NCBI GenBank assembly: GCA_964593705.1
Contig: CAZQIV010000004.1
Coordinates: forward strand, 27,646-91,645
Length of the DNA stretch: 64,000 bases
Reading direction: 5' to 3'
Source: an uncultured Lentimicrobiaceae bacterium
GTDB taxonomy: Bacteria; Bacteroidota; Bacteroidia; Bacteroidales; 4484-276
The notes under the pieces: generated by a model
Told to the model about the DNA's origin: nothing
Databases searched by the model: none
Seen by the model: only the letters and a program-made list of their open reading frames with translations
Shown here: piece after piece, positions 1,866 through 43,780 of the stretch
How the letters are laid out: the number at the start of each line of letters is the position of its first letter
Numbering within the stretch: the stretch's first letter is position 1
Program-made: the position numbers and the translations under genes

Positions 1866-1926
1866 AATTATAAAATTTAGAAGTTGGTAAATTTAATAGA
1901 GCAAATCTTTTGAAACTTAAAAAGCA

Positions 1927-3729: not shown

Positions 3730-3821
3730 TGTTCTGTTCAATTTTACTGTTGTCCTTCAAGCAGAAAAGCAGTTATTGTTATTCTATAATTGCAAAATAT
3801 TGTTCCAAATATTGTGGTTCA

Positions 3822-5541: not shown

Positions 5542-5551
5542 AGTCAAAATG

Positions 5552-6232: not shown

Positions 6233-6259
6233 TTTGAAAATTTTCCTTTGTCAAATAAA

Positions 6260-7168: not shown

Positions 7169-7169
7169 G

Positions 7170-10298: not shown

Positions 10299-10663
10299 TT
10301 TAGCGATTTGTATTTATTGATATCATAAGTTCTATTTTCGGTGTACATGCGCAAAGCATAAGTAAGCATTAATGCGGTGATGCCCACGCCAATAACAATG
10401 GCTGTGAGTACAAGTGCCTGTGGTAATGGATCCACAATTTTTGTTGCGGCATCGGCTTTGTTAACAGCCCCATCGATAATTGGCGCTGTTTTATTTCGGA
10501 TGTACCCGATACTCACCAAAATCAAGTGAACACTGGTATCGAGAATAGAAAAGCTGAGGATAATTTTAATTATATTTTTTTGAGAGATTATTCCCCACAA
10601 GCCGGCAAGAAAAAGCAGCAAGCCTGTTGCCATACTTATGTATTCGATATTTAAATATTTCAT
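10292..10663 (-). CDS. MnhC / NuoK-like subunit (MbxG-like)
   Basis: 123 aa, 3 TM segments, with DPLPQALVLTAIVIGVGITA typical of MrpC/MnhC. It overlaps both neighbours by 4-7 nt. Confidence 0.75.
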   Translation of the reverse strand: MKYLNIEYISMATGLLLFLAGLWGIISQKNIIKIILSFSILDTSVHLILVSIGYIRNKTAPIIDGAVNKADAATKIVDPLPQALVLTAIVIGVGITALMLTYALRMYTENRTYDINKYKSLKW

Positions 10664-11358
10664 TTTTCCTCTCCTTGTGTTTGATTGAGCACAATAATAA
10701 TTTTAGAAAGTTCGGCACCTACCTTAAGGCCTATAAGGCTATAAATAATTGGGATGGCTCCCGCGCTGAGCAGCTCGCCAAAAGTTCCGAGGGGCAGAAT
10801 TTTATTATCAAGAAAGCCCGCGGCTAAAAAGATTCCAAGTACGCCAAGGATCACAAATCCGAAGCCCGAAAATGCTTCGGTAACTTTAAGGAGTGTATGG
10901 CTGATCCTGGGGCCAGATACCGACATGAGCCACAGAATTATGGCCGAAGCAAGCACAGCCCCACCTTGAAATCCCCCTCCCGGAGTAAGGTGACCATTGA
11001 TAAAAATATAAACTCCTACCAGAATGATGATGGGGAGTAACACATTGGTGGCGGTTTCGAGCAACTCGCTGGTAGCTTGTTCAGGTTTTCGGTTGGAGCT
11101 TTTTCCGGTCGAGAGCATAAAACCAATTATAGCAGCAGTAAGAAACAGGATGGTAACCTCACCCAGGGTATCAAATCCACGGTAGGTAACAACAATAGCA
11201 GTTACCAGGTTGGCAGCGCCGGTTTCGGCAGCGCCATTTTTTGCATAATATTCTGCAGTCGAATTTAGTTTATCTGCGCCGTGGTATGCCGATAGTTCCT
11301 GAAAAAGAATCCATCCCATACCTGCAATTATCAAAATCAGAATACTATTTCGTATCAT
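10660..11358 (-). CDS. MnhB-like subunit (MbxF-like)
   Basis: GAANLVTAIVVTYRGFDTLGEVTILF is the MnhB-domain signature. 232-aa membrane protein. Confidence 0.75.
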   Translation of the reverse strand: MIRNSILILIIAGMGWILFQELSAYHGADKLNSTAEYYAKNGAAETGAANLVTAIVVTYRGFDTLGEVTILFLTAAIIGFMLSTGKSSNRKPEQATSELLETATNVLLPIIILVGVYIFINGHLTPGGGFQGGAVLASAIILWLMSVSGPRISHTLLKVTEAFSGFGFVILGVLGIFLAAGFLDNKILPLGTFGELLSAGAIPIIYSLIGLKVGAELSKIIIVLNQTQGEEK

Positions 11359-11596
11359 CGGTTTGTCGGATTTTATTTAATACATAAAAGAAAATTACCA
11401 CTGTGAGTGCGCTACCAATAGATGCTTCGGTGATGGCTACATCAGGAGCAGCGAGAAAAATATATACCACCGAAGCAAACAAGCTGATAATGCCGGAGGC
11501 GATAACCGCAACCTGCAGGTTCTTGTGATGGATTGCTGTGAATGCCATGACGAGCATGATCAGCGACATTATAATTATGATTATCGAATAGAGCAT
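11345..11596 (-). CDS. DUF4040 / MbhD-MbxD-like small membrane subunit
   Basis: LAAPDVAITEASIGSAL matches the MnhB N-terminal (DUF4040) pattern. The ATG at 11596 (MLYSII) lies 7 nt after the MnhG stop, whereas the longer track ORF overlaps MnhG by 47 nt. Confidence 0.6.
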   Translation of the reverse strand: MLYSIIIIIMSLIMLVMAFTAIHHKNLQVAVIASGIISLFASVVYIFLAAPDVAITEASIGSALTVVIFFYVLNKIRQTDDTK

Positions 11597-11603
11597 ATAA
11601 TTT

Positions 11604-11948
11604 TTATTTAGCTTGTGAAACATTTTCTTCATCTTCGGCCAGCTTATCAATAGCAGTTCTTGATGAAAGTGGAACCTTTATAAAATGTGCTGCCCTGCCT
11701 AAAACATGCGATGAAACCGGATTGGAAATAAAAATAAAAATGATGAGCAAAGCAATTTTCAACAACCAGTCGGGATGAATCAACCCTATGCCAAGCAAAG
11801 TGAGCATCGAGCCCAGCGTAGAGGCTTTTGTTCCGGCTTGTATCCGGTTGTAGATGTCGGGCATACGCAACAATCCGATGCCTGCAAACAAAATAAACAT
11901 AGCCCCGATCAGGGTAACGAATGCGCCAATAATTTCCAGAATTTCCAT
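11604..11948 (-). CDS. MnhG-like subunit (MbxC-like)
   Basis: GIGLLRMPDIYNRIQAGTKASTLG is the MrpG/MnhG signature. Confidence 0.8.
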   Translation of the reverse strand: MEILEIIGAFVTLIGAMFILFAGIGLLRMPDIYNRIQAGTKASTLGSMLTLLGIGLIHPDWLLKIALLIIFIFISNPVSSHVLGRAAHFIKVPLSSRTAIDKLAEDEENVSQAK

Positions 11949-11949
11949 A

Positions 11950-12210
11950 TTACAAACTTTTTGCTAAATATTTAGCTATTACTATCACACCAATAAAACT
12001 CAGTATGCCATAAACTATCGAAACATCGATATAAATTACCCTGCCAAAAAAGTGAGCCAGCATCACTATTAAACCGATAGAACTTACAGTGAGAACATCG
12101 AGGGCTACTACGCGATCGACTACAGTGCTGCCAAGCAAAAAACGCACAATCACCAATAGAAAGGAAATAGCGATTATAACCAATGCGATGGAAAGAATAA
12201 TATTAACCAT
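11950..12210 (-). CDS. MnhF-like subunit (MbxB-like)
   Basis: LLGSTVVDRVVALDVLT is the MrpF/MnhF motif. The ATG at 12210 overlaps the MnhE stop by 8 nt; the longer track ORF runs inside MnhE. Confidence 0.75.
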   Translation of the reverse strand: MVNIILSIALVIIAISFLLVIVRFLLGSTVVDRVVALDVLTVSSIGLIVMLAHFFGRVIYIDVSIVYGILSFIGVIVIAKYLAKSL

Positions 12211-12697
12211 AAAGAACCTCCAGGTATTTTTCAAATTTTCGAATAATGGACTGTGCATACTTTTCGGTATTATCACCATCAATATGTACGCAATGTATAT
12301 AAAGGGTATTTTCTTTGATGTCGATGGTAAAAGTACCGGGGGTGAGCGTAATTGAATTGGCAAGTATCAGTCGGGCCATCTTCGATTTTAATACCGTTTC
12401 AGCTTTGATAATCCCCGGATTGATGGGCAATGCCGGATTGAGCACACGCATGGCAATGTCAACATTGGATTTCACAAGTTCCACAACAAAAACACCCAGG
12501 TAAACAAATGTGTAGTAGATCGACTTTGGATTGATATTAATATCATTAAAAATCGAACATTTCTTACAAATTGCAAAGGATAAGAGTAGCGAAACACCTG
12601 CTCCGATGAGTAGTGGTGCAATTTGAATTGTATTGTTCAGTACCATCCAAATGGCCATGAGCATTACAAATACAACAAAAATTCCCTTAAATTTCAT
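12203..12697 (-). CDS. MnhE-like subunit (MbxA-like)
   Basis: 164-aa membrane protein with the MrpE-typical ITLTPGT motif. Confidence 0.75.
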   Translation of the reverse strand: MKFKGIFVVFVMLMAIWMVLNNTIQIAPLLIGAGVSLLLSFAICKKCSIFNDININPKSIYYTFVYLGVFVVELVKSNVDIAMRVLNPALPINPGIIKAETVLKSKMARLILANSITLTPGTFTIDIKENTLYIHCVHIDGDNTEKYAQSIIRKFEKYLEVLYG

Positions 12698-13361: not shown

Positions 13362-13569
13362 TTTGGAGACAGGTTCAAGGGAAGTATTTGATAATGTTTC
13401 CCTTTTTAAAATTGTACCGTATTTTGCCAATGTATGTTTCAATTGCTTAGTTTTGTAGAAATTTGTTGCAAAAGTGTAATTTGAATCTTTTGGTTTGATA
13501 AATAAAAAATGATTTGTCAACCGGAAAAAATTAAGATATCTCACTTTTTTTGATGTTTTATTTTGTAAA

Positions 13570-14268
13570 ATGCTGAATACGAATACAAAACTTAAATGTA
13601 GCCTGTGTACCTACAAGCAGCAATGCTATTTTAGTAGTTTAACCGAAACCGAATCTGATTTTTTATATCAAAACAAAACAGAAGTAGATTTTAAAGCTGG
13701 CCAAACCATCTATAAACAGGGTACTGTTTCGAAATATCTCATTTTTTTATTGAGTGGCATGGCTAAAGTTTTTATTGAAGGCGACAACAACAAAAATTAC
13801 ATTTTACAACTGGTTAAGCCTTTTCATTTTTTAGACTTCCCCGCCATTTTCGACAACGATATGCTTTTCCGTTCTTCGGTGGCGGTAATGGATTCGCGTG
13901 CCTGCCTTGTTGATATCGATGCTTTTAAATCGTTGGTGCTTTCCGATAAAAAACATTTCCCCCGCATCATCAGGCATTTCAACCAACTTCAGCAACAATA
14001 CTCCACCAGGTTGATCAATGTATTGTATAAAAATATGGAGGCACGCATTGCCGATGCGTTACTTTACCTGGTAAACGAAGTTTATTACAGCCGTGTTTTT
14101 ACCCTGACCATTTCGCGAAAAGAGCTTGCCGAATTGGCCGGCCTGTCCAAGGAGAGTACCAGCCGTATTTTAAGCCAGTTAAAAGATGAAGAAGTTTTAA
14201 AAATTAAAGGAAAAGAAATTGAGGTACTCAATAAAAAATACCTTGAGCAACTTTCAAGAATTGGTTAA
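13570..14268 (+). CDS. FNR-type (Crp/Fnr family) [4Fe-4S] oxygen-sensing transcription regulator
   Basis: cNMP-binding-like fold plus a C-terminal HTH (RKELAELAGLSKESTSRIL). Cys10, 13, 19 and 112 have exactly the spacing of E. coli FNR Cys20/23/29/122. Confidence 0.8.
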   Translation: MLNTNTKLKCSLCTYKQQCYFSSLTETESDFLYQNKTEVDFKAGQTIYKQGTVSKYLIFLLSGMAKVFIEGDNNKNYILQLVKPFHFLDFPAIFDNDMLFRSSVAVMDSRACLVDIDAFKSLVLSDKKHFPRIIRHFNQLQQQYSTRLINVLYKNMEARIADALLYLVNEVYYSRVFTLTISRKELAELAGLSKESTSRILSQLKDEEVLKIKGKEIEVLNKKYLEQLSRIG

Positions 14269-14718
14269 CTCTTTCTGCAAATTTTACCAGCATTTCATTG
14301 AATACATTTTGAACTTGTTTTATGAATAGTAAAAGCCAATTTGGTTACATTCAGATTACTGAAAAATACTTTCACCATATCTATTTTAAAGGTGGCTCTA
14401 CTATCATTTTTGTTGAATTTTGTTTGTTAATTTAATTGCTGTTGATAATGAGACAACAGTGGGCTGTGGGCTGCAGACTGTGAACTGAAAAATTGTTGAG
14501 CCTTTCCAATAATCATGATATCAAATTGTGGCCTTAATACACTGATACAAGCTGCAAAGAAAATCATGGTAATAAAAGGGCTCTCACCAAATCAATAAAA
14601 AAAATGACCTAAACCATTACTTTTGTTGAGCCAGAATCATTGTTAATAAATAAACAATACCCATTAAATTATAATTTTGCACATTAACATATAGAGATAC
14701 TTACATACAACAAGATCG

Positions 14719-16965
14719 ATGAAAACCAGGAGAGACTTTATTAAAATATCGGCATTGGGAACCGCTGGAGCTACACTGGCTGGCAGCATGTTATCCTTTG
14801 GCCGGGGATCCTCGGCAGTGGATGATTTTACGAAAAAGACCGAGCCTCTAAAAAAATTACAACGCTACCCAACGTATTGTGAAGTATGTTTTTGGAAGTG
14901 TGCGGGCTGGGCTTATGCCGATGAAAACAATAAGGTTGTTAAAATTATAGGTAACCAGGAAGACCCGCACTGTAACGGAAGGCTTTGTCCACGGGGTACA
15001 GGTGGAGTCGGAATGGTTAACGACAGCGACAGACTTACGCAACCATTAATAAGGACCACTGTTAATGGCAAACAAACATTTAAGGAAGCAACATGGGAAG
15101 AAGCATTATCCCTCATAGCTTCCAAAATGAAAGATGTATCTGAAAAATATGGGCCGGAAGCTTTCGCTTTATTTAATCATGGATCTGCAGGTCATCATTT
15201 AGGACATCTTTTTAAAGCCTATGGTTCTACAAATATTACTGCACCATCCTATGCCCAATGCCGCGGGCCTCGCGAAGTTGGTTTTGCAGCAACCTTTGGT
15301 TCAGGAGTAGGCTCACCCGAACCTACTGATATTCGCGACACAAGATGCCTCGTTCTGATAGGCTCTCACCTTGGCGAAAACATGCACAATAGCCAGGTAC
15401 AGGAAATGTCGGATGCCATCGACAAAGGCGTTTCCATTATTACCGTTGACCCCAGGTTTTCGACAGTAGCCAGTAAATCAAAATTCTGGTTACCCATCAA
15501 GCCTTCAACCGATCTTGCACTTTTGTTAGCCTGGATTCATGTAATAATCAACGAAAAACTTTACGATAAAGATTATGTTGAAAAATATACTTACGGACTC
15601 GACCTGCTTAAAGCGCATGTAGAAAACATGACCCCTGAATGGGTCTATGGCATAACTACTATTAAGCCAGATGTAATCAGGAAGACTGCCCGTGAAATGG
15701 CCGATGCCTCTCCATCAGTGATTATTCATCCCGGGCGGCATGTTACCTGGTATGGCGATGATAGTCAACGTGCAAGAGCCATGGCAATATTGAATGCATT
15801 ACTTGGATCGTGGGGACGGCGTGGAGGATTTTATTTCAAGGAAAGCATGAAGGTACCACACTTTCCCCACCCTGAATATCCAAAACCAAAATGGTCGTGG
15901 CGCGATACACTCAATGGCAAATATCCATTAGCCGGTTTGGCCATATCCAATGGCCTGATAGATGCATCCATCCCTTCGCCCGACAATAAGCACCAGATTA
16001 AAGCCTGGATGGTTGCCGGCACAAACCTTCCACTCACAATGCCACAAAAAGAACAGTTGAATAAGGCATTTGATGCGCTTGAATTTGTTGTAGTTGTCGA
16101 TACAATGCCAATGGAAATAACAGGTTATGCTGATGTTATTATTCCTGAATGTACTTATCTCGAAAGATATGACGACCTGAGAACTTCGCCAAACCGTGAG
16201 CCATTCATCGCCCTGCGCATGCCGGCCACTAAGCCCTACGCCGATACCAAACCGGCATGGTGGATGGCCAAACAACTGGGTGAAAAACTTGGCCTTGGAG
16301 AATATTTTGCTTACGATAACTATACTGAAGTCTTAGACTGGCAGCTTCAGCAGGTAGGCTCATCACTTGAGGAAATGCAAAAAATTGGAATTAAAAAATA
16401 TAAGCGCACCTCCGGGCCACTTTACCTCGGCAAAGATGAAGATTACACCTTTAATACAAATACAGGTAAAATTGAACTTTACTCCACCGAATTCCAGGCA
16501 AACGGGTTTGATCCCATGCCTGTATTTACGCAGCATCCTGAACCACCATCGGGGTATTACAGGTTAATTTATGGCCGTGCTCCCATGCATACATTCAGCC
16601 GAACGGCAAACAACCCGAATCTTCACGACCTGAAAAAAGAAAATTCTATTTGGATTAATCCGAAAGTAGCCAGTTTGTGGGGTTTGAAAAAAGATCAATA
16701 CATCTGGATTAAAAATCAAGATGGAGTTGTATCGAAATTTCCTATTAAAGTTAGGATTACCGAAAGAATAAGATGGGACTCTATTTATATGGTACACGGA
16801 TTTGGGCATAGTGATAGAAAACTTAGCCGGGCCTATGGCCGGGGCGCCAGCGATTCGGATATGATTACAAATGTAATGGTTGATCCGATAATGGGAGGAA
16901 CCGGGATGCGTGGAAATTTTGTAACATTTTTAACTAAAGACCCAAAAGAGGAGGTTAACTCATGA
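14719..16965 (+). CDS. Molybdopterin oxidoreductase catalytic subunit, PsrA/PhsA-like (polysulfide/thiosulfate reductase family), Tat-exported
   Basis: Twin-arginine leader MKTRRDFIKISALGTAGATLAGS. N-terminal [4Fe-4S] motif CEVCFWKC...C. 748 aa. Followed by 4Fe-4S and NrfD-type subunits. Confidence 0.8.
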   Translation: MKTRRDFIKISALGTAGATLAGSMLSFGRGSSAVDDFTKKTEPLKKLQRYPTYCEVCFWKCAGWAYADENNKVVKIIGNQEDPHCNGRLCPRGTGGVGMVNDSDRLTQPLIRTTVNGKQTFKEATWEEALSLIASKMKDVSEKYGPEAFALFNHGSAGHHLGHLFKAYGSTNITAPSYAQCRGPREVGFAATFGSGVGSPEPTDIRDTRCLVLIGSHLGENMHNSQVQEMSDAIDKGVSIITVDPRFSTVASKSKFWLPIKPSTDLALLLAWIHVIINEKLYDKDYVEKYTYGLDLLKAHVENMTPEWVYGITTIKPDVIRKTAREMADASPSVIIHPGRHVTWYGDDSQRARAMAILNALLGSWGRRGGFYFKESMKVPHFPHPEYPKPKWSWRDTLNGKYPLAGLAISNGLIDASIPSPDNKHQIKAWMVAGTNLPLTMPQKEQLNKAFDALEFVVVVDTMPMEITGYADVIIPECTYLERYDDLRTSPNREPFIALRMPATKPYADTKPAWWMAKQLGEKLGLGEYFAYDNYTEVLDWQLQQVGSSLEEMQKIGIKKYKRTSGPLYLGKDEDYTFNTNTGKIELYSTEFQANGFDPMPVFTQHPEPPSGYYRLIYGRAPMHTFSRTANNPNLHDLKKENSIWINPKVASLWGLKKDQYIWIKNQDGVVSKFPIKVRITERIRWDSIYMVHGFGHSDRKLSRAYGRGASDSDMITNVMVDPIMGGTGMRGNFVTFLTKDPKEEVNS

Positions 16966-17495
16966 GATATGCCATGGCAATAGACACTAAAAAGTGTGTC
17001 GGGTGCAGCGACTGTGTAGTTGCCTGCCAAACAGAAAACAACGTTCCATTAGGATATTGCAGGGATTGGGTAACAGAAACTGTTACCGGCAGCTACCCCA
17101 ATGTAGAAATTGAACTCAGAACTGAAAGATGCAACCACTGCGATAATTCACCATGTGTGCGCTGTTGCCCAACCGGCGCAAGCCATATTGTTGAAGGAGG
17201 CATTGTTCTGGTTACTCCCGAAGAATGTATAGGTTGCGGAGCGTGTATCCAATCCTGTCCGTACGATGCCCGGTATTCACATCCAAAAGGCTATGTGGAT
17301 AAATGCACATTTTGCAACCATCGTGTGGTAAAGGGCGAACTACCGGCATGTGTGGCAGTGTGCCCTACAAAATGTATGTATTTTGGTGATTTAGACAATC
17401 CAAATAGCGATGTGTCGAATGCACTGAAAAACAGAAAATATAAAACCCTGGCTCCTGAAGCCGGGACAAAGCCACACATTTTTTATCTTATTTAA
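16962..17495 (+). CDS. 4Fe-4S ferredoxin-type electron-transfer subunit, PsrB-like
   Basis: Four Cys clusters (CVGCSDCVVAC, CNHCDNSPCVRCC, CIGCGACIQSC, CTFC...CVAVC). ATGA overlap with the catalytic subunit gene. Confidence 0.85.
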   Translation: MRYAMAIDTKKCVGCSDCVVACQTENNVPLGYCRDWVTETVTGSYPNVEIELRTERCNHCDNSPCVRCCPTGASHIVEGGIVLVTPEECIGCGACIQSCPYDARYSHPKGYVDKCTFCNHRVVKGELPACVAVCPTKCMYFGDLDNPNSDVSNALKNRKYKTLAPEAGTKPHIFYLI

Positions 17496-17507
17496 TAAAG
17501 AAACAAA

Positions 17508-18449
17508 ATGAGAGAAGAATTATTTATTAGCGGACGCGACATTCCAAATATCGACCCGTTTTTGCATATCTGGCACTGGCAAATACCGATTTACCTTTTT
17601 CTGGGTGGTCTTGCTGCCGGGATTTTGTTTTTTGCCAGCCTGTTTACAATTATTGGCAAAGAAAAAGAGATGCCGGCAACTGTAAAGTGGGGACCGTTTT
17701 TTGTTCCCGGAGTCCTGGTATTGGGCTTGCTTATGCTCTTTTTAGATCTTAAACACCAAATGTATTTTTGGAGACTTTACACCACCATCCGCATGGATTC
17801 GCCAATGTCGTGGGGAGCGTGGGTACTCATGTTTATTACACCGCTGTCTTTTCTTTGGATTGCGAGTTATATCAAAGAACTTGTTCCTGAATGGAATTGG
17901 AAGTACAAATGGATAGACGAATTTTTAGAATGGTTCAATAGCAGTCGTACACCCATTGCCTGGATTATGATGGCGCTTGCAGTGGTGTTGGGGATTTATA
18001 CAGGCATTTTACTTAGCGCCTTCAATGCACGACCCCTTTGGAATAATGCGATATTGGGGCCTTTGTTTATGGTTTCGGGAATGTCAACAGGTGTTGCAAC
18101 TGTTATGTGGATTTCAAAAAGCCATAGCGAACGTAAAATTCTAGGCCAGATAGACATCCTGCTCATCGTGGTTGAGCTGTTTTTTATTACCCACATGTTA
18201 ATGGGTATGCGTGCCGGATCAGAAGTAATGATTCAGGCTGCCGATTTGTTCCTCGGCGGAGAGTTTACCGTTTCCTTCTGGGTGTTTGTTATAATTCTTG
18301 GACTTTTATTTCCTGCATTGCTTGAAGTGCTTGAGCTTCGTGGGTTTAAAGTTCCGATAGCAATACCAGCTCTGCTTATTTTAATTGGTGGTTTAGTTTT
18401 CAGGTTTGTAATGGTTGAAGCCGGGCAAATAACAAGATATCTCTACTAA
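17508..18449 (+). CDS. NrfD/PsrC-type membrane anchor subunit
   Basis: 313 aa, 8-9 TM segments, typical position after the PsrA/B-like genes. Confidence 0.8.
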   Translation: MREELFISGRDIPNIDPFLHIWHWQIPIYLFLGGLAAGILFFASLFTIIGKEKEMPATVKWGPFFVPGVLVLGLLMLFLDLKHQMYFWRLYTTIRMDSPMSWGAWVLMFITPLSFLWIASYIKELVPEWNWKYKWIDEFLEWFNSSRTPIAWIMMALAVVLGIYTGILLSAFNARPLWNNAILGPLFMVSGMSTGVATVMWISKSHSERKILGQIDILLIVVELFFITHMLMGMRAGSEVMIQAADLFLGGEFTVSFWVFVIILGLLFPALLEVLELRGFKVPIAIPALLILIGGLVFRFVMVEAGQITRYLY

Positions 18450-18468
18450 ATAAATAAAATCTCATATC

Positions 18469-18987
18469 ATGAACGACAAATCGAAAATATACTGGAATCC
18501 TTATTTTGGCGGTGTAATGTTGGGCTTACTCCTACTCGCAACCTTTTACATCACCGGAAGAGGTCTGGGTGCAAGTGGCGCTGCAAAAAGTACTGTAGTA
18601 GCTACTATTAAAAAAGTTGCGCCCGAACACGCTAAAGAATCAACTTATTACAGCAAATTTATATCAGACGATGCGCATCCACTCAACCAATGGCTGGTTT
18701 TTGAAGTTATTGGAATTCTAGCCGGTGCGCTACTTTCGGGTGCGCTTTCAAACAGGCTGAAATTCAAGGTTGAACACTCACCAAAAATTAGCTCCGGCCG
18801 CCGGCTTGCTTATGCTGCTTTTGGTGGCTTAGCATTTGGCATAGGTTCTCAATTTGGACGCGGATGTACTAGTGGCGCTGCCCTAAGCGGGATGGCATCA
18901 TTATCACTTGGTGGTTTTATTGCCATGCTTTCAATTTTTGGAAGCGCTTATATGTTCGCGTATTTTTTCAGAAAAAATTGGATTTAA
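18469..18987 (+). CDS. YeeE/YedE-family sulfur-compound transporter, half-size subunit 1
   Basis: 172-aa membrane protein with GRGLGASGA and GRGCTSGAALSG, the paired glycine-rich/Cys motifs of the Sulf_transp family. Confidence 0.75.
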   Translation: MNDKSKIYWNPYFGGVMLGLLLLATFYITGRGLGASGAAKSTVVATIKKVAPEHAKESTYYSKFISDDAHPLNQWLVFEVIGILAGALLSGALSNRLKFKVEHSPKISSGRRLAYAAFGGLAFGIGSQFGRGCTSGAALSGMASLSLGGFIAMLSIFGSAYMFAYFFRKNWI

Positions 18988-19008
18988 TCACACACAAATT
19001 TAAGTAAC

Positions 19009-19599
19009 ATGGGCCCACTCATTCCATTAGATATTATCGACCCGAGCTGGAATAATGTATTTGCAATTTTAATAGGAATTGCTTTTGGATTTATCCTCGA
19101 ATCATCAGGATTTTCATCAAGCCGCAAATTAGCAGGAGTTTTTTATGGCTATGATTTCACGGTTTTAATTGTGTTCTTTACAGCCGCGATAACTGCTGCA
19201 ATTGGTCTTTACTATTTTTATTATCTTGGATGGATAGACATAAACATAATTTACGTTAACCCAACTTATCTTGGTTCGGCCATTGTTGGCGGAATTATTA
19301 TGGGGCTGGGATTTATTACCGGAGGCTATTGCCCCGGCACAAGCTATTGTGGTGCTGCCATCGGTAAAATAGATGCTATTGTTTATTCCTTTTCCATGAT
19401 GGCCGGCATCTTTATATTTTCAGAATTCTATCCTCTATTCGAAGATTTCTACAATTCAGGTTTCCTCGGAAATATTACTGTATATGATTCACTTGGTATT
19501 TCAGTAAGCTTATTCATGATTATCCTTATTGTAATTGCTTTGGCAGCATTTTATGCCACTTCTTTGATAAAGAAAAAAGTAAAAAAAGTTGAATACTAA
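19009..19599 (+). CDS. YeeE/YedE-family sulfur-compound transporter, half-size subunit 2
   Basis: 196-aa membrane protein with GGYCPGTSYCGAAIG, adjacent to the first half. Confidence 0.75.
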   Translation: MGPLIPLDIIDPSWNNVFAILIGIAFGFILESSGFSSSRKLAGVFYGYDFTVLIVFFTAAITAAIGLYYFYYLGWIDINIIYVNPTYLGSAIVGGIIMGLGFITGGYCPGTSYCGAAIGKIDAIVYSFSMMAGIFIFSEFYPLFEDFYNSGFLGNITVYDSLGISVSLFMIILIVIALAAFYATSLIKKKVKKVEY

Positions 19600-19611
19600 C
19601 TGTTTACAGCT

Positions 19612-20226
19612 ATGAATAAAACCTATATAATACTTGCAGGAATTTTAATCATCTTAGGTCTTGGATTATTCGTACTTGAGGCAAAAGAGCAAAACGAAGA
19701 AATCACTCCCAAAGAATTATTGACCGATCTGATCGAAAACACCAGGTATGTCACTTCCGATGATCTGGCGTGCAGAATTATCGAAGGAGACCCGTCGATA
19801 CAAATGATTGATGTTCGTGATGTGTATGATTTCATGGATTTTTCGCTGCCGGGAGCTGAAAGTATTCCCATTTCTGACCTTGCCACAGACATAACCGGCG
19901 AATTACTTGGAGTTCCTGGAAAAGATTTTATTTTTTATTCAAATGGTGATGTGGAAGCAAATAAAGCATGGCTGATTTCACAGCGATTAGGCTACAATAG
20001 TTTGTACATTTTAAAAGGCGGTTTAAATAAATGGATCGAAACAATTATCAAACCCCAACCACCAGCCGAAAGTCAGCCCCGGGAAGCATTCGACCTTTAC
20101 CAGTTCAGGCTTGGGGCAAGCCAATATTTTACCGGGGATAATGCCACAATTACCACTGATGCTCCTGCACTGGAAATCCAGTTTGAACGGAAGAAAAAGA
20201 AAGGCGCTGTTGAGGGCGGGTGCTAG
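19612..20226 (+). CDS. Membrane-anchored rhodanese-homology-domain protein, catalytic Cys replaced by Ser, C-terminal RKKKKGAVEGGC tail
   Basis: N-terminal TM anchor. RHOD blocks IDVRDVYDF..LPGAESIP and LGYNSLYILKGGLNKW. The active-site loop reads IFYSNGDVEANKA (no Cys). The final residue is Cys. Confidence 0.75.
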   Translation: MNKTYIILAGILIILGLGLFVLEAKEQNEEITPKELLTDLIENTRYVTSDDLACRIIEGDPSIQMIDVRDVYDFMDFSLPGAESIPISDLATDITGELLGVPGKDFIFYSNGDVEANKAWLISQRLGYNSLYILKGGLNKWIETIIKPQPPAESQPREAFDLYQFRLGASQYFTGDNATITTDAPALEIQFERKKKKGAVEGGC

Positions 20227-20249
20227 TCAGCATTGGAATCATTGTATCA

Positions 20250-20442
20250 TAATTAGAGTCCGTTTTTAAAGTAACTTTTAGAAAAATATACGATTTCAGA
20301 TTAACGATTTTAGATTTAAGATGTTAGTGTGTATTAATCAAATCTATAATCTGCTCCAAAGGAGTCCTTCGGACAATTCCCGATTATGCGGTATTAATCT
20401 TAAATTAAAAAATTATCGACACTTTGGACACGCATTAATTAG
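20250..20442. mobile_element. MITE-A family copy (long-cargo subfamily) between the two rhodanese paralogs
   Basis: Imperfect TIRs taattagagtccgtttttaaagt / cgacactttggacacgcattaattag. The first ~50 nt are near-identical to the reverse complement of 43730-43780. Confidence 0.6.
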
Positions 20443-20600
20443 GATCATTTTTGGAGTATTAATGGAAAATTGATAAGTGTAAATAAAAATATGAAATGGG
20501 TAAAAGTAGAGAATGATTATTTTTAGAGAATTAAAAGATACATGGAAATAAATCTCAAAATCATTCACACTACTTTTTGCCATCTAAAATTTAATATGCT

Positions 20601-21239
20601 ATGAAAGAACACAAAACAAAGAGGCTTGTTACAGCAGTTACTGTTTTTTTGGGGGTACTGATTGTAGGTTACATTTTTATGAAAAGCCCCGAATTAGCTT
20701 TTGTGGAAACGCCGCAGCAAACCATCGATTTTTTAATGGATTCGGAATATGAAGTACTACCGGAGGATGTGGCCTACAATGTTGAATTTGGCGAACCTGG
20801 ATTTGTCTATATTGATTTGAGAAACCCTTATGAGTTTGCTAAAGGAAATATTGCAACATCAATCAACATACCACAAACTGATTTGCTTGAAAAAACAACG
20901 CTTAAGTTTTTTAATGAAACAAAAAAAGATTCATTGATGATGATACTGATTAGCTATGACGAAGCCGCGGCAATTGGGCCCTGGCTAATTTTAAAACAAT
21001 TAGGGTACAACAATACAAAACTTATGAAAGGTGGTTGGAGTTATTATGCCAACGAATCGCTGGACCCCTACGATATGCCTGAGGTTCCAAAATATATGGT
21101 TGAAGAGCCTGCTTACAACTTCGCTTCAATTATGGAAATGATGAAATCTTCACCTGCTGCTGCTTCTCAAACAGATGCTCCTGAGATTATTTTGCCTACC
21201 AGAAAGAAAAAGAAGGGAGCAGTAGAAGGGGGATGTTAA
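20601..21239 (+). CDS. Membrane-anchored rhodanese-homology-domain protein paralog, no catalytic Cys, same RKKKKGAVEGGC tail
   Basis: N-terminal TM anchor. IDLRNPYEFAKGNIATSINIP and LGYNNTKLMKGGW. The active-site loop is ILISYDEAAA. The only Cys in the protein is its last residue. Confidence 0.75.
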   Translation: MKEHKTKRLVTAVTVFLGVLIVGYIFMKSPELAFVETPQQTIDFLMDSEYEVLPEDVAYNVEFGEPGFVYIDLRNPYEFAKGNIATSINIPQTDLLEKTTLKFFNETKKDSLMMILISYDEAAAIGPWLILKQLGYNNTKLMKGGWSYYANESLDPYDMPEVPKYMVEEPAYNFASIMEMMKSSPAAASQTDAPEIILPTRKKKKGAVEGGC

Positions 21240-21414
21240 GTATTGATCTTTTCGGGATTACATATTAACCCAGAGATAGTAAAAGAGGTACTACTGCGAA
21301 TTTAGTGGAAAGGTATTATCAAATACACCCTATTTATTCTTTTTCTAATGAAATATTGTTAATAGATTTCTCCTTCCAAAACTTGCTGCGCTACGTTTTT
21401 CCAGTCGAAATGAC

Positions 21415-21600
21415 AAAACCCGGGGTCTCGTATGGGGTGGGTGAAAGTGGGCGCTTTGCGCCCACTTTCACCCACCCCCAAATCCCACCAATACTTTGTT
21501 ACCTCGAAGGAGCTTAGTCCCGCACATGCGGGATTCCGACCCATCGGGGACTGAGACCCGCTTCGCCAGCGAGGCGAGCGAGGCGAGCAAGGCGGGAATC
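21415..21600. repeat. Composite GC-rich hairpin repeat block
   Basis: Contains a perfect 21-bp stem / 3-nt loop hairpin (21434-21478), the tcccgcacatgcggga palindrome and gaggcgagc-type direct repeats. Four track ORFs here only read through these repeats. Confidence 0.7.
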
Positions 21601-21720
21601 TGTTCTTTTATGTACATTGATTTTGCATCCACAAAAATGGTAGTAGAATCTTTTATTTTTTATGATGTATTGCAGGCACTCAACAATTTGTAATTTTGGC
21701 AAATATTATCAAAAGTCTAA

Positions 21721-22560
21721 ATGTCAGAAGTAATATCCAATAAAAAAAAACCGGGAATATTGAATCCTCGCAAGTTGCCACCCAAACGCAACTATCGCGA
21801 TCACCTTTTAAAGTTCCGTAGGGTATTGATTAGGATTGTAGCAATAACAATGCTTTTGGCAGTGCTCGCCTTTATGAACCGTCCTTTCATCTTCGATAAG
21901 ATTTTATTGGCCCCGAAAACCGAAGAGTTTTTCACCAACCGTATGCTATGCCTTATTGGGGAAAGGCTGGAGATTGACAACCTTTGCTTCAACACCGAAG
22001 CGCTTACAATTATCAATGTAAATATGGCAGGCCAGTTCTTAACCCATCTTTACGTTTCGATTGTTGCCGGAGTAATCCTTGCCTTTCCGTACATCCTGTT
22101 TGAGATATGGACTTTTTTGGCCGCCATTCTTAAAATAAAAAACCAACGCACAACAATTGCAACTATTTCTGCCGGTAGTTTTCTTTTTGTTTTAGGGCTC
22201 TTGTTTAGTTACTTCCTCATTGTTCCCCTCACGGTAAATTTCCTGGGTACTTATTTCGTGAGTAGCGAAGTACAAAACACTGTAATGCTTGGCTCCTACA
22301 TCAGCACTATTGCCTCCTTGATTCTGGGAGTTGGAATTTTTTTCGAGCTTCCGGTTTTCGTCTATTTTCTTGCCAGGTATGCCATTGTAAGCCCCGATTG
22401 GCTAAAAAAAATGAGGCGCATCATGATTGTAATTATTCTTATCATTTCTGCCATTATTACTCCGCCTGACATTATTAGTCAAATCATGGTTTGTATCCCA
22501 CTTATTATTCTTTACGAAGTAAGTATTTGGCTTGCAAAACGAGCATACAAGCCGGGATAA
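21721..22560 (+). CDS. tatC: Twin-arginine translocase subunit TatC
   Basis: 279 aa, 6 TM segments, with TatC blocks (LRRVLIRIVA-like start, FEIWTFLAA, ITPPDIISQ). Confidence 0.85.
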   Translation: MSEVISNKKKPGILNPRKLPPKRNYRDHLLKFRRVLIRIVAITMLLAVLAFMNRPFIFDKILLAPKTEEFFTNRMLCLIGERLEIDNLCFNTEALTIINVNMAGQFLTHLYVSIVAGVILAFPYILFEIWTFLAAILKIKNQRTTIATISAGSFLFVLGLLFSYFLIVPLTVNFLGTYFVSSEVQNTVMLGSYISTIASLILGVGIFFELPVFVYFLARYAIVSPDWLKKMRRIMIVIILIISAIITPPDIISQIMVCIPLIILYEVSIWLAKRAYKPG

Positions 22561-22769
22561 TTTATTTGTAAATATTTTTTGAGACCAGTCTAAAAAGGCA
22601 CGAAGCATCATATTTACACAATTATCATCTCAGATTATCAGTATGTTAAAAAATAATATCCGTGCATCAGTGGCTTTTTATTCCGGATTCATTTTATTGG
22701 TTTTAATTTCAATTCATCCACGGGAATTTTAATTTTAAGTAAATATCCAAAACAAAACAAACAATGTGC

Positions 22770-23480
22770 TTACCCGGTTTTACTTATTTTATGTAACTGT
22801 TCAGTGTTTGTTAATGTTATGCTTGAGCCCGAAATTTTAATAAAGCCTTCATTTTGAAACTTTGCAAGGGCACGTGATGTGCTTTCCCGGGTTATCCCAA
22901 GCAGGCTGCCAAACTCATCCCTGGTAACAGGAAACGTAAATGTATTGCTATCAAAAATGTCATTTCCAAAATATAGTAATGCATCAGCTACTTTCCCATA
23001 GGTTTGTTTAGCATTAATGCTAAGAAACCTGCGGTGACTGGAGAGGTTATCTTTGGAAATTAAAACCAGTATTTCGTAAGCAAAATCACCATTACCCCGT
23101 ACCAGATTTTTAAATGTTTCAACATCAATGTAGCAAACCTTTACATCGTTCAAAGCTTTGTACGAATAGTGGTTTATCCTGCCACCAAAAAGTGAGTTCA
23201 GCCCAAGGTATGAAAAGCTTTTTATTATCTGAACCATTTGATCGCGACCATTATCACCCTTTATATATTCTACCACCAGCCCACTGCGCAAATACACAAT
23301 ATGAGAGGTAAAAGAACCCTCAAGTAAAATATGTTCTTTTTTGTGCAGGCTAAGTTCGCGGCAATTTTGTTGAAGTGTGCTTACCTGCTCATTGTTTAAT
23401 AATGCAATTGCGCAAAAGCGATCCAGGCATGATGCACAACTTGAGTATTGCTTGTTTAAAAAACCAAATTCATTGCTCAT
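22770..23480 (-). CDS. FNR-like Crp/Fnr-family transcription regulator with N-terminal Cys cluster
   Basis: C-x2-C-x4-C near the N-terminus plus a fourth Cys 93 residues after the third (same distance as in FNR). HTH RDEFGSLLGITRESTSRAL. The track start at 23498 is TTG; the ATG is at 23480. Confidence 0.75.
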   Translation of the reverse strand: MSNEFGFLNKQYSSCASCLDRFCAIALLNNEQVSTLQQNCRELSLHKKEHILLEGSFTSHIVYLRSGLVVEYIKGDNGRDQMVQIIKSFSYLGLNSLFGGRINHYSYKALNDVKVCYIDVETFKNLVRGNGDFAYEILVLISKDNLSSHRRFLSINAKQTYGKVADALLYFGNDIFDSNTFTFPVTRDEFGSLLGITRESTSRALAKFQNEGFIKISGSSITLTNTEQLHKISKTG

Positions 23481-23647
23481 AAAATTGTTTCTTCTCAACT
23501 TGCAAAGTTAACAAAATTACTCTATGTGATTAATGTCACATATACATAATGAATTAATCACAAAAATAAATTTAGCCTCAGTGCAATCAAATTTTACCTT
23601 TGTGATTGACCATAAAATTTACATAATTATATTTAAAAAATAAACTT

Positions 23648-23887
23648 ATGAAACCATTCGCCTGTAAATGCCTTTTCATTTTACCCATAATCTTATTTGT
23701 TGATTATGTTATTCTGGCACTTTTTGGTGCCACATCCTGCTTTTTCGGTGTGGGTGAAAACGAATATTGTTCGATATATTCATCAGTTGCGATAATGTTC
23801 ACTTCTGCATCGCTGGTTTTTTTTGTAGGAATAATAGCCAGGAAAAACAAAAAAGAAGCTTGCGACTCAGACGAAGTTGCTACTTAA
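23648..23887 (+). CDS. Small Cys-rich membrane protein (2 TM), function unknown
   Basis: 79 aa with two hydrophobic segments and 5 Cys, followed by a strong terminator. No recognisable family. Confidence 0.4.
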   Translation: MKPFACKCLFILPIILFVDYVILALFGATSCFFGVGENEYCSIYSSVAIMFTSASLVFFVGIIARKNKKEACDSDEVAT

Positions 23888-23910
23888 TTTAAGCGAAACA
23901 TTTTATCTCC

Positions 23911-23957
23911 AAATAAAAAACCCGGGTAAGAATTTCTTACTCCGGGTTTATTTTTTA
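23911..23957. terminator. Bidirectional rho-independent terminator
   Basis: Stem cccgggtaagaa / ttcttac(t)ccggg flanked by an A-run and a T-run, between convergent genes. Confidence 0.75.
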
Positions 23958-23971
23958 TCAATACTAAAACT

Positions 23972-25657
23972 CTATCCTATTTTTTTATCTACAATTGCTA
24001 CAATCTCCTTTTCCAGTTCCAGGGCTTTTGTTTCGATTTCGGTGCCTTTTTGAAGCAGATTATTCACAAATTCCTTATCATCCAATCCGGCTCCATTAAT
24101 CCTAACATTCATAAATGCACCACGAACAGCAACACGTGCGCACAAAGCGCCAACACCGGCATCTGAAACAGAGTTTGGATTTCCGGTTTCAGCCATTGCT
24201 TTCATTACCTCCATCGAATCGAAGGCTTTGTGCATCACCTTAAACGGAACTTCCATTGCATACTTCGAGGCATCTTCGATGGCCAGTTTACGCGCGGCTT
24301 TTTCGGCATCCGACCCTTTTGGCAAACCAAAGGCATCCATAATTTTATTGAAAGCATTGGTATCTTCGTCAACGAGGTGTAATAGTTCATCCTTAATTTT
24401 TTGGCCTTTTTCGGCCCAATCCGAGAATTCTTCCCAGCGCTCATCCCAACCACGCTTGTGCGAAGAAAGATTGGCCACCATTGTTCCCAATGAAATCCCC
24501 AGCACACCGGCATAAGCTGCTATCGAGCCACCACCGGGAGCCGGTGATTCTGAAGCAGTTTCATCGGCAAATTCGGTAAGATTCATGTCAACAAGTTTCT
24601 TTTTACCCTCATCGGCAATCATGAATTCAATAATTTTTTCTTCGGGCTTGAAGGGTTTTAAATCATCGAGACCAAGAGACCTAACAGCAATTTTAATCAG
24701 TTCGGATTGTGAAACACCGGCAGATCTATTTTGCTTTTTCAGGAAATATTTACCGGCATCAAGCATGGCGTTCAATGGTATCAATCCAACCAGCTCGGAA
24801 CCTGTAACCCGAATTCCCCGCTCGGCTGCCTTTTTACACGCCTCCTCAAAAGCCACGTGTACCGGAGTAATACTAATATTTGTAAGGTTCAGCGAAATCT
24901 GGGCAATGCCATACTCTTCAATAAACCAACCAATACCTTTTACCGATTTTAAAGTACCCGGAATATTTACTTTATTTCCTTTTTCATCACATACAATTTT
25001 CCCATTAATGGGGTCGCCTTCACGCATTACCCGCCCGCGCTCACGGATATCAAAGGCTATAGCATTTGCTCTTCTTGTGGATGTTGTATTAAGATTAACA
25101 TTATAAGCCACCAAAAAATCGCGTGCACCAACTGCTGTAGCTCCGGATTTAGCATTAAATTTTGCCGACCCAAAATCAGGCTTCCATTCAGGCTTTGCCA
25201 ACTTTACTGGCAGTCCTTCGTATTCTCCTGAGCGGCAGGTAGCCAAATTCCGGCGTTTTTCGGTGAAGGCTGCATTTTCGTAGCAGTACACCGGAATATC
25301 CAATTCTTCGCCAATGCGCTTCGCGAGTTTGCGGGCATACTCCACGGTTTCCTCCATGCTAATATTGGCAACCGGAACCAGCGGGCACACATCGGTAGCC
25401 CCCATGCGGGGATGCTCGCCTTTGTGTTTTGTCATATCGATAATCTGCGATGCCTTTTTAACAGCCCTGAAAGCCGCTTCAATTACTTCATCGGGGGTAC
25501 CAACCATTGTTACCACGGTTCTATTTGTTGCTTTTCCGGGGTCAACATCCAGCAGTTTTACACCTTCTACAGCTACTATTTCATCAGTAATCTGCCTGAT
25601 AATTCCCATATCAAATCCTTCACTGAAATTCGGTACACATTCAATCAATTTTTCCAT
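23972..25657 (-). CDS. ftcD: Glutamate formimidoyltransferase / formimidoyltetrahydrofolate cyclodeaminase (bifunctional FTCD)
   Basis: N-terminus ECVPNFSEG...HPRMGATDVCPLVP (formiminotransferase). C-terminal part SPAPGGGSIAAYAGVLGISLGTMVANLS (cyclodeaminase). Confidence 0.85.
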   Translation of the reverse strand: MEKLIECVPNFSEGFDMGIIRQITDEIVAVEGVKLLDVDPGKATNRTVVTMVGTPDEVIEAAFRAVKKASQIIDMTKHKGEHPRMGATDVCPLVPVANISMEETVEYARKLAKRIGEELDIPVYCYENAAFTEKRRNLATCRSGEYEGLPVKLAKPEWKPDFGSAKFNAKSGATAVGARDFLVAYNVNLNTTSTRRANAIAFDIRERGRVMREGDPINGKIVCDEKGNKVNIPGTLKSVKGIGWFIEEYGIAQISLNLTNISITPVHVAFEEACKKAAERGIRVTGSELVGLIPLNAMLDAGKYFLKKQNRSAGVSQSELIKIAVRSLGLDDLKPFKPEEKIIEFMIADEGKKKLVDMNLTEFADETASESPAPGGGSIAAYAGVLGISLGTMVANLSSHKRGWDERWEEFSDWAEKGQKIKDELLHLVDEDTNAFNKIMDAFGLPKGSDAEKAARKLAIEDASKYAMEVPFKVMHKAFDSMEVMKAMAETGNPNSVSDAGVGALCARVAVRGAFMNVRINGAGLDDKEFVNNLLQKGTEIETKALELEKEIVAIVDKKIG

Positions 25658-43500: not shown

Positions 43501-43545
43501 CAGGCAATTAACTAATAACATTATAACCCAATAACCATCCTTTAT

Positions 43546-43780
43546 TTAATGTTCGTCCAGAAAGTTGACAATTTTTCAATTTAAGATTAACGAACGGAGA
43601 TTTTAGATTTTGCTGAGTATCACCAACATCTTAAATCTATGCCATAGGCTCGCCTCGCGAAGCGGGCATCCCAATGGGAAAAACGCCTGCCTCGCCTGCA
43701 CACGAGCCACTTCTGGCGGCAAGGCGGGTTAATCTGAAATCGTATATTTTCTAAATGTCACTTTAAAGACCGACACTATT
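43546..43780. mobile_element. MITE-A family copy (long-cargo subfamily); its terminal repeat supplies the tricorn gene's TAG stop
   Basis: TIRs ttaatgttcgtccagaaagttgac / gtcactttaaagaccgacacta. The right end is near-identical to the reverse complement of the left end of 20250..20442. Confidence 0.6.

Follow-up and report, generated by a model that had tools for sequence, protein, structure and literature searches.

A pair of rhodanese-fold proteins with Ser in place of the catalytic Cys and an identical Cys-terminated arm, encoded beside Psr/Phs-like reductase and PmpAB-like channel genes

Several described systems hold sulfur on a protein cysteine and pass it to a partner. Sud of Wolinella succinogenes is a periplasmic polysulfide-sulfur transferase that acts as protein-bound polysulfide donor to Psr. 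The arm of SoxY is flexible and delivers intermediates into partner active sites, while DsrC/TusE and TusA are sulfane sulfur relay proteins, with the Cys of DsrC placed on a flexible C-terminal arm and its sulfur handed to a reductase or another partner. One Sox study describes the pathway intermediates as bound covalently to the SoxY cysteine (PMC5336275), and a YeeE-type channel has been proposed to receive the persulfide of SoxYZ in the work that also set out the concept of the half-proteins PmpA and PmpB, a split YeeE/YedE (PMC11582611). A phsABC-pmpAB-sulfurtransferase cluster was reported from Ca. Electryoneota, Ca. Lernaellota and Caldithrix abyssi, with the functions of Pmp and of the sulfurtransferase called unclear and with a Pmp-sulfurtransferase fusion in one metagenome-assembled genome (MAG) (PMC9324843, Williams et al. 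2022), a fusion that fits with physical association of the two. Here we describe two adjacent rhodanese genes, open reading frames ORF1 and ORF2 (products Rhd1 and Rhd2), located in a cluster of this kind on a 64,000-nucleotide stretch of DNA from an uncultured Lentimicrobiaceae bacterium (assembly GCA_964593705.1, contig CAZQIV010000004.1; the whole stretch is called the window). Both products have Ser where active rhodaneses have their catalytic Cys and both end in the same Cys-terminated tail. Feature positions are collected in Table 1; L-numbers denote compared loci and P-numbers family members.

Rhd1 and Rhd2 are 29% identical overall. Both pass the Pfam Rhodanese model PF00581 (gathering cut-off 22.2), ORF1 with 45.5 bits (E 1.1e-11) and ORF2 with 38.6 bits (E 1.5e-9), and this is the sole Pfam match of either protein. 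No specific model for ORF1 or ORF2 was found in Pfam and NCBIfam searches, and a hidden family annotation was rejected, NCBIfam yielding merely weak sub-threshold matches to MoeB/MoeZ rhodanese modules. The last 12 residues of the two proteins are identical (RKKKKGAVEGGC, that is, R-K-K-K-K-G-A-V-E-G-G-C-stop), with the stop codon directly after the Cys. This tail is written cgg aag aaa aag aaa ggc gct gtt gag ggc ggg tgc in ORF1 and aga aag aaa aag aag gga gca gta gaa ggg gga tgt in ORF2, so that 9 of the 12 codons differ, every change being synonymous, and 26 of 36 nucleotides are identical. Since only three codons are identical against 5.8 expected from family codon usage, recent duplication or gene conversion is excluded as the source of the tail identity in the window. 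The terminal Cys is the one cysteine of ORF2; ORF1 has in addition C54, which is not conserved. A preliminary description, made from the DNA letters, had given the coordinates and sizes of the two proteins, their weak similarity, the identical tails at the same positions, the nine synonymous codon differences as evidence against recent duplication and the terminal Cys as sole Cys of the second paralog, and each of these points held exactly upon reanalysis.

The hallmark of active rhodaneses of the GlpE, PspE, Sud and TST type, a Cys as first residue of the active-site loop, is absent from Rhd1 and Rhd2 and replaced by Ser. In the predicted secondary structure the residue right after the central β-strand is Ser110 in ORF1 (IFYS-NGD) and Ser118 in ORF2 (ILIS-YDE), the same Ser residues that had been singled out in the preliminary description. 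Family statistics were taken over 241 full-length members, in which the column at position 110 holds Ser in 165, Gly in 45, Ala in 11, His in 9, Asp in 5 and Cys in 4. A Cys hidden elsewhere in the loop was also looked for, and 210 of the 241 members have none within positions 105–120. Pairwise and MAFFT alignments to E. coli GlpE were rejected as a guide to the catalytic position; they placed the loop gap inconsistently, with C65 opposite either Y109/S110 or I107. The position was therefore taken from the predicted secondary structure together with the absence of Cys across 105–120, and the ambiguity is immaterial because there is no Cys anywhere in this loop stretch. In four of the 241 members (P0030, P0160, P0252 and P0255) the terminal Cys is accompanied by one at the canonical catalytic position; such proteins may represent intermediate stages, or reversions, in the move of the reactive residue.

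At the other end of the protein a Cys is conserved throughout the family. In a collection of 5.8 billion proteins, 83 full-length homologues of ORF1 and 37 of ORF2 were found, all of which carry at their C-terminus a basic block and then (V/A)EGGC or a near variant. A profile search of 1.84 billion cluster representatives (E <1e-30) placed the family at no fewer than 379 clusters at 50% identity; the best 150 profile matches include 135 short proteins, of which 127 terminate in G-x?-C, followed by one more residue at most. The eight short representatives that have no such tail comprise five that stop short (139–159 residues) and three of 185–212 residues with unrelated C-terminal sequence. A selenocysteine at the tip (TGA for TGY) was considered and rejected, as none of these eight ends in ...GG. 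Across the 241 members the Cys ends the chain in 215 and is followed by a single residue in 26, and it is the only Cys in 116; Gly precedes it at −1 in 240 and at −2 in 215, Glu stands at −3 in 165, and Lys occupies positions −7 to −10 in 155–195. The four residues before the Cys carry a net charge of −0.9, to which the terminal carboxylate adds, and the preceding twelve a net charge of +4.2. In two alignments that include both subfamilies (67 and 45 sequences), five columns are invariant: D67, R69 and G137, which belong to the fold, and G203 and C204 of the tail. Conservation of the tail in orthologues, on which the preliminary description had staked its proposal, thus extends down to ~20–30% identity and across phyla.

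The two tails of a genome also match each other more closely than they match those of other genomes. In 76 genomes the paralog tails are alike at 10.5 of 12 positions within a genome versus 8.1 of 12 between genomes, a value reached in 0 of 5000 shuffles, and within a paralog pair the variable residues that separate the Lys block from EGGC change together (MPV/MPV, APA/APA, RKP/RKP and YES/YES). Over the same genomes, 499 identical codons were observed at identical tail residues versus 424 expected, and some pairs share 35–36 of their 36 tail nucleotides (L079, L115). Part of the cross-genome tail identity of paralogs is therefore due to gene conversion, though not in this window. In the window, L111 and L063 the tail peptides are identical while their codons match less than expected (3–4 of 12), and identical peptides over randomised synonymous sites point to a lineage-specific constraint for both arms to be the same. 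The sameness of the two arms within a lineage is as expected if both dock into one partner site.

AlphaFold2 models built with the family alignments reached a mean predicted local distance difference test score (pLDDT) of 84 for ORF1 and 80 for ORF2. In each model a hydrophobic N-terminal helix (residues 4–25 in ORF2) is followed by a predicted rhodanese fold (38–151 in ORF2), by one further helix (157–174 in ORF1 and 174–183 in ORF2) and by a C-terminal arm of pLDDT below 50, in line with the signal-anchor helix and the flexible arm that had been proposed from the DNA letters. The top matches of the ORF1 model in a Foldseek search of the PDB are all single-domain rhodaneses (3o3w, 3gk5 and Alr3790; E ~1e-7, probability 1.00). 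The hydrophobic 18-mer of the family anchor has a mean Kyte–Doolittle hydropathy of 2.7, and Gly18 of the Rhd1 anchor is near-invariant (≥90% of sequences). Positive charge is greater on the N-terminal side of the anchor helix than on its C-terminal side in 225 of the 241 members, Pro is often found just after the helix in listed members (e.g. LLLPEK and LVLIPK), and the basic C-terminus of PmpB (KKKVKKVEY), presumably cytoplasmic, is encoded immediately before the Rhd1 N-terminus. On these grounds, and with the TAT-exported (twin-arginine translocated) PsrA in the same compartment, Rhd1 and Rhd2 would be type-II signal-anchored proteins with the N-terminus in the cytoplasm, an uncleaved helix and the rhodanese domain in the periplasm; the charge bias predicts the outside location that the preliminary description had supposed for the domain.

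The distribution of the tail was followed independently of the domain by scanning one genome per species (185,579 species) with the DNA pattern KKK-x3-E-G-G-C-stop, which gave at least 181 matches in at least 118 stretches. Among the matches listed, 161 of 181 are the 3′ ends of open reading frames with a phmmer match to ORF1 or ORF2, 7 end in TGG, which is not a stop, and ~6 look like chance, ~9 being expected by our estimate from a 37-bit pattern; the remaining ones are degraded, truncated or orphan copies. No other protein family with KKK-x3-EGGC-stop was present among the matches listed from these 185,579 species genomes. The sulfur-metabolism context that had been suggested for the motif was thus recovered, in that the listed matches lie essentially only at the 3′ ends of family genes, within the psr/phs-pmpAB operon.

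Orphan stretches encoding ...RKKKK(S)(A/V)TEGGC-stop occur in three Rikenellaceae MAGs (L053 ~7850–7882, L088 ~550–582 and L116 ~3044–3076), in each case following a Crp-family regulator gene of that strand at a distance of a few dozen bases, and lacking any rhodanese open reading frame. The stretch is in frame with crp in L088 and L053 and out of frame in L116; since the frame is not constant, read-through of the Crp stop codon is unlikely. These stretches may be the remnant of a lost operon or a tiny open reading frame.

Upstream of Rhd1 the window has a Psr/Phs-type set, consisting of a TAT-exported molybdopterin subunit, a four-cluster ferredoxin subunit and an NrfD membrane subunit, followed by two half-length Sulf_transp proteins that each cover one half of the profile and each carry a Cys motif (GRGC and GYCPG), as PmpA and PmpB do. 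In tblastn searches with the window proteins, relatives showed the colinear order psrA-psrB-psrC-pmpA-pmpB-rhd1-rhd2; PmpB immediately precedes Rhd1 in 76 of the 77 loci that have room for it, and 26 of the 27 loci with at least 5.6 kb of upstream sequence contain all of psrABC-pmpAB. Distant members (29–40% identity, with tails such as GGCS) occupy the same operon. The best NCBIfam match of PsrA is PhsA, the thiosulfate reductase, at 473.6 bits. The hosts are mainly Flavobacteriaceae, many of them cultured (Lutibacter, Maribacter, Salinimicrobium, Formosa, Winogradskyella, Tamlana, Polaribacter sp. Hel1_85 and others), with further hosts in the Bacteroidales and Cyclobacteriaceae and one Neomarinimicrobiota MAG; one short family contig is labelled as the gammaproteobacterium Ca. 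Venteria ishoeyi. A single tail-bearing rhodanese is apparent in the Neomarinimicrobiota MAG (L010) and in two unclassified MAGs (L036 and L102), and in one Bacteroidia locus (L107) the rhodanese comes directly after psrC, with no PmpAB match.

A third rhodanese gene, Rhd3, gave tblastn matches in 44 sources, which amount to 43 distinct loci (L002 copies the place seen in L001), mostly in Flavobacteriaceae, and is missing from the window. Rhd3 is a tandem-rhodanese protein of 340–365 residues, often with a lipobox (e.g. L001 11299–12393, L061, L013, L021 and L121), and its gene lies downstream of Rhd2 in the loci where the gene order was read (L001, L121 and L122). The canonical loop Cys (IICNNG) is retained in 56 of 58 copies, none of which is marked by a GGC tail. 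The combination of a catalytic rhodanese with two pseudo-rhodaneses bearing their Cys on an arm suggests a division of labour where Rhd3 is present.

The terminal Cys is very probably the functional residue of an accessory protein of the Psr–Pmp system. For the function itself we lean, if only modestly, towards Rhd1 and Rhd2 being periplasmic, membrane-tethered sulfane-sulfur carrier arms, like SoxY or Sud, that serve the Psr/Phs reductase and PmpAB. In this proposal the rhodanese fold would be kept as a scaffold with no catalytic Cys, and the functional thiol would sit at the end of a disordered arm of ~27 residues, in which a cationic block of Lys leads to a small anionic tip, E-G-G-C-COO−. 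The terminal thiolate would be loaded with sulfane sulfur, forming a persulfide or polysulfide, by attacking polysulfide directly or by transfer from Rhd3. Slim at its Gly-Gly neck and anionic in the manner of a substrate, the tip could thread into the narrow anion-binding site of a partner. As to the partner and the direction of transfer, the tip would deliver chiefly to the PsrA substrate funnel, where the bound sulfur would be reduced to sulfide in the role that Sud has in Wolinella, and secondly to the mouth of the PmpAB pore, in the way that a hand-over from SoxYZ to SoxT has been proposed. Possible roles of the Lys block are anion steering, a lowering of the pKa of the thiol and retention of the arm at the anionic surface of the membrane.

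Several points weigh against such a carrier. The presence of sulfur on the terminal Cys is inferred, as is the periplasmic topology, which is predicted from the positive-inside rule. The substrate of the Psr/Phs-like enzyme may be other than polysulfide or thiosulfate, the PhsA score of PsrA lying below the NCBIfam equivalog cut-off of 694, and a Psr-like selenite reductase operon also has rhodanese genes (PMC12481199). Neither the pair nor the channel is strictly required, as seen from the single-copy state (e.g. Neomarinimicrobiota L010) and from the one locus that has no PmpAB (L107). The electrostatics are not uniform across the family, a minority of members having poly-Glu before GC (EEEEEEGC) in place of the Lys-proximal part; the relocated-Cys arm of the preliminary description stands as to the lost loop Cys and the invariant terminal Cys, but its poly-Lys spacer is not universal. 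A Lys block would, moreover, be repelled by the positively charged anion funnels of PsrA and YeeE, unless only the anionic tip enters them.

Among the alternatives to a sulfur carrier, an unlikely one is that the terminal Cys forms a thiol-disulfide redox arm. The two arms would then make or resolve disulfides and would, for example, reduce or reset the pore cysteines of PmpAB or free sulfur from another carrier, as proposed for DsbA/SoxS beside SoxT. The presence of two arms per system with matching sequences would suit this role, as would the conserved pore Cys motifs of both PmpA and PmpB, and periplasmic thiol-disulfide oxidoreductases have been invoked for sulfur release at YeeE-type channels (PMC11582611). 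However, a protein with a single Cys and neither a CxxC motif nor a thioredoxin fold would make a poor dedicated oxidoreductase, lineages with a single copy exist (L010), and in the gene tables inspected the operon encodes no reductant source for a periplasmic thiol.

Somewhat less probable still is that the arm works as proposed for sulfur and carries another chalcogen, with selenite or tellurite bound as selenotrisulfide- or perselenide-type adducts in respiration or detoxification. The sub-cut-off PhsA score leaves room for another substrate, a connection with selenium exists for the YedE family as well (weak match to the NCBIfam YedE/FdhT model, E 6.6e-9), and the Psr-like selenite reductase operon of Bacillus selenitireducens holds the rhodanese genes srrE and srrF (PMC12481199). 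Nevertheless, PhsA is the best NCBIfam match of PsrA, SrrE and SrrF are far larger proteins (38 and 45 kDa), and several carriers come from sulfidic settings, among them Lutibacter sp. B1 (L008), an isolate from sulfidic Black Sea waters.

That the tail serves attachment or localisation, with its Cys lipidated or covalently linked, or with the Lys block and Cys together binding membrane or metal and no substrate carried, seems very unlikely to us. A polybasic stretch with a terminal Cys does resemble the polybasic-plus-prenyl-Cys anchors of eukaryotes, and Lys blocks bind anionic lipid surfaces. The proteins, however, already have a transmembrane anchor, no transferase or other modifying enzyme is conserved in the operon, and we know of no bacterial pathway for lipidation of a C-terminal Cys. 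A general sorting or lipidation signal was rejected, because among the matches listed the motif is essentially confined to one family and one operon. Hardly credible at all is the last alternative, that the identity of paralog tails is a by-product of repeated 3′-end gene conversion with the tail itself having no specific function: the excess of identical codons and the nearly identical nucleotide pairs speak for it, but the window, L111 and L063 show identical peptides with codon matches below expectation, G-G-C is invariant across subfamilies only ~20–30% identical and across phyla, and conservation between species is not explicable by conversion.

If Rhd1 and Rhd2 are indeed sulfur carriers, they would be a clear case of a reactive residue shifted from an active-site loop to a flexible tail, with a bearing on the evolution of sulfur relay, and the G-G-C terminus could mark sulfur-respiring potential in Bacteroidota genomes. 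A wider construction is speculative and, taken whole, doubtful: a new class of protein-tethered carrier in which a pseudo-enzyme rhodanese with co-evolving arms threads polysulfide into the PsrA funnel and/or the PmpAB pore, a Psr–Pmp–Rhd supercomplex forms through the membrane helices, and coupling to the neighbouring Mbx/MBS-like complex is possibly attained through sulfur import. On this reading, the many cultured "aerobic" Flavobacteriaceae of marine origin that have the operon (Maribacter, Polaribacter, Formosa, Winogradskyella and Tamlana) would point to a widespread, overlooked capacity for reductive sulfur cycling on marine particles. The family is large, is found in many cultured marine flavobacteria and is experimentally accessible, since trypsin or Lys-C would free a short diagnostic tip peptide; with this many cultured carriers, and with the Lys block easing mass spectrometry of the tip, experimental follow-up is worthwhile.

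The surroundings of the operon contain further recurrent genes. The operon of the window is bracketed by two Crp/FNR-family regulator genes, an arrangement also seen in L001, L011, L019 and L066, and tatC follows Rhd2; tatC adjoins Rhd2 in L014, L032 and L085 as well. Crp/TatC neighbours thus recur in the Bacteroidales relatives L011, L014, L019, L032, L066 and L085, and together they suggest oxygen- or redox-dependent control and a dedicated TAT export of PsrA. On the other side, at 882–12697 on the minus strand, the window has an Mrp-antiporter-type module with MnhE, MnhB/MbhE and a 1042-residue fused antiporter subunit, together with NuoH-, NuoB-, NuoC- and NuoD-like subunits, a 604-residue NuoI/GltD(SudA)-like flavo-iron-sulfur protein and a DHODH-like protein. 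NiFe-binding CxxC motifs are missing from the NuoD-like protein, which marks the module as Mbx/MBS-like or complex-I-like and not a hydrogenase. In the distant relative L001 (13441–20648), genes for MnhE, MrpF, MnhG, MbhD, MnhB, a NuoK-like subunit, antiporter M, NuoH and NuoB flank the operon, up to the end of that locus. An antiporter/Nuo-like module beside the operon hints at a larger sulfur-respiration island.

Two noncoding segments were also recorded. The spacer between ORF1 and ORF2 (20227–20600) is unusually long at 374 nucleotides versus ~94 nucleotides in the close relative L014, and a segment of ~260 nucleotides within it resembles the intergenic region 43519–43781 of the window (75–87%, inverted orientation). 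With its imperfect 28-nucleotide inverted arms (20307–20334 and 20563–20590), the insert looks like a small repeat of the MITE (miniature inverted-repeat transposable element) kind. A perfect GC-rich 21-nucleotide palindrome, GGGGTGGGTGAAAGTGGGCGC / GCGCCCACTTTCACCCACCCC with a 3-nucleotide loop, stands in otherwise AT-rich DNA at 21434–21478, ~195 nucleotides past the ORF2 stop and before tatC; 25-nucleotide matches of its flanks to 54639–54715 suggest another dispersed repeat. An Rfam search of 13500–24000 returned nothing meaningful and no family for this palindrome, and promoter and terminator scans gave no excess over shuffled expectation.

Table 1. Positions of the two rhodanese genes, their predicted elements and the neighbouring genes within the 64,000-nucleotide window
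Feature	Position	Strand	Basis or remark
Crp/FNR-family regulator (second), upstream of psrA	13570..14268	+	Pfam cNMP_binding + HTH_Crp_2
PsrA/PhsA-like molybdopterin catalytic subunit, TAT signal	14719..16965	+	Pfam Molybdopterin, Molydop_binding, Molybdop_Fe4S4, TAT_signal
PsrB-like 4x[4Fe-4S] electron-transfer subunit	16962..17495	+	Pfam Fer4_11 and related
PsrC/NrfD-like membrane quinol-oxidising subunit	17508..18449	+	Pfam NrfD, E 2.8e-43
PmpA-like half-size YeeE/YedE channel, single Cys in GRGC	18469..18987	+	PF04143 C-terminal half, profile 175-308 of 310
PmpB-like half-size YeeE/YedE channel, GGYCPGTSYC motif, C-terminus KKKVKKVEY	19009..19599	+	PF04143 N-terminal half, profile 8-157
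Rhd1 (ORF1), predicted signal-anchored Cys-less rhodanese with terminal-Cys arm, 204 residues	19612..20226	+	Pfam, homologues, AlphaFold2, Foldseek
Rhd1 predicted N-terminal transmembrane anchor, residues 3-24	19618..19683	+	AlphaFold2 helix, pLDDT 88-92
Rhd1 rhodanese fold, residues 33-146	19708..20049	+	PF00581, Foldseek
Ser110 codon (tca), predicted catalytic-Cys position of Rhd1	19939..19941	+	strand 105-109, loop S110-D113, helix from 114
Rhd1 predicted disordered C-terminal arm, residues 177-204, tail RKKKKGAVEGGC at 20188-20223	20140..20223	+	pLDDT <50 at 177-194, 196-204
Rhd2 (ORF2), paralogous predicted signal-anchored Cys-less rhodanese, identical tail, 212 residues	20601..21239	+	Pfam, homologues, AlphaFold2
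Ser118 codon (agc), predicted catalytic-Cys position of Rhd2	20952..20954	+	strand 113-117, loop S118-D120, helix from 121
Rhd2 predicted disordered C-terminal arm, residues 187-212, tail RKKKKGAVEGGC at 21201-21236	21159..21236	+	pLDDT <50 at 187-202, 204-212
TatC translocase subunit, downstream of operon	21721..22560	+	PF00902, E 2.6e-54
Crp/FNR-family regulator, convergent with operon	22770..23498	-	Pfam cNMP_binding + HTH_Crp_2

Compared with the described systems, Rhd1 and Rhd2 share single features with several. Sud (PDB 1QXN) is likewise a single-domain rhodanese tied to PsrABC, as Rhd1 and Rhd2 are through their place in the psrABC operon, and its structure is a weak sequence match (E 0.021). 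Sud is soluble and holds its sulfur on the loop Cys, whereas Rhd1 and Rhd2 are predicted to be membrane-anchored, have Ser or Gly at that site and keep their only conserved Cys at the C-terminus of an arm predicted to be disordered. With SoxY, whose C-terminal arm ends in GGCGG, they share a Cys within a Gly-rich motif at the extreme C-terminus and a predicted flexibility of the arm. Unlike SoxY, they have a rhodanese fold and no SoxY Pfam match, the neighbourhoods inspected contain no SoxZ partner or sox genes, the arm includes the Lys block over its ~27 residues, the Cys is usually the very last residue, and the context is reductive (Psr/Phs) rather than oxidative. DsrC/TusE and TusA differ in being cytoplasmic and of unrelated folds, with no Pfam match in ORF1 or ORF2, and the Cys of DsrC lies in the penultimate region of a structured arm. 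ThiS/MoaD proteins have a β-grasp fold and a thiocarboxylated C-terminal Gly-Gly, whereas in Rhd1 and Rhd2 a Cys comes after the Gly-Gly and closes the chain. Alr3790 from Nostoc, the best match by sequence in the PDB, is also a Cys-less rhodanese (YGAGD versus YSNGD in ORF1), aligned with ORF1 only over the rhodanese domain (ORF1 residues 52–142). The Srr operon of Bacillus selenitireducens resembles the present one in combining a Psr-like molybdenum enzyme with two rhodanese-domain proteins, SrrE and SrrF (PMC12481199), but these have masses of 38 and 45 kDa, the host is Gram-positive and the substrate is selenite. Rhd1 and Rhd2 are, as judged from their sequences, bona fide catalytically inactive rhodanese-fold proteins; as the loop Cys of Sud, the fold of SoxY and a SoxZ partner are all absent, they belong to neither the Sud nor the SoxY group.

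In operon composition the window agrees with the phsABC-pmpAB-sulfurtransferase cluster of Williams et al. (PMC9324843). Neither the missing catalytic Cys nor the tail with its terminal Cys is described in that paper, nor are the pairing of paralogs and their wide occurrence in Flavobacteriaceae and Bacteroidales, and full-text literature searches found no prior description of the tail, the loop-Cys loss or the pair, so that the tail motif appears as undescribed as the preliminary description had supposed. For this cluster, in which the functions of Pmp and sulfurtransferase were called unclear, the terminal-Cys arm offers a concrete and testable mechanism.

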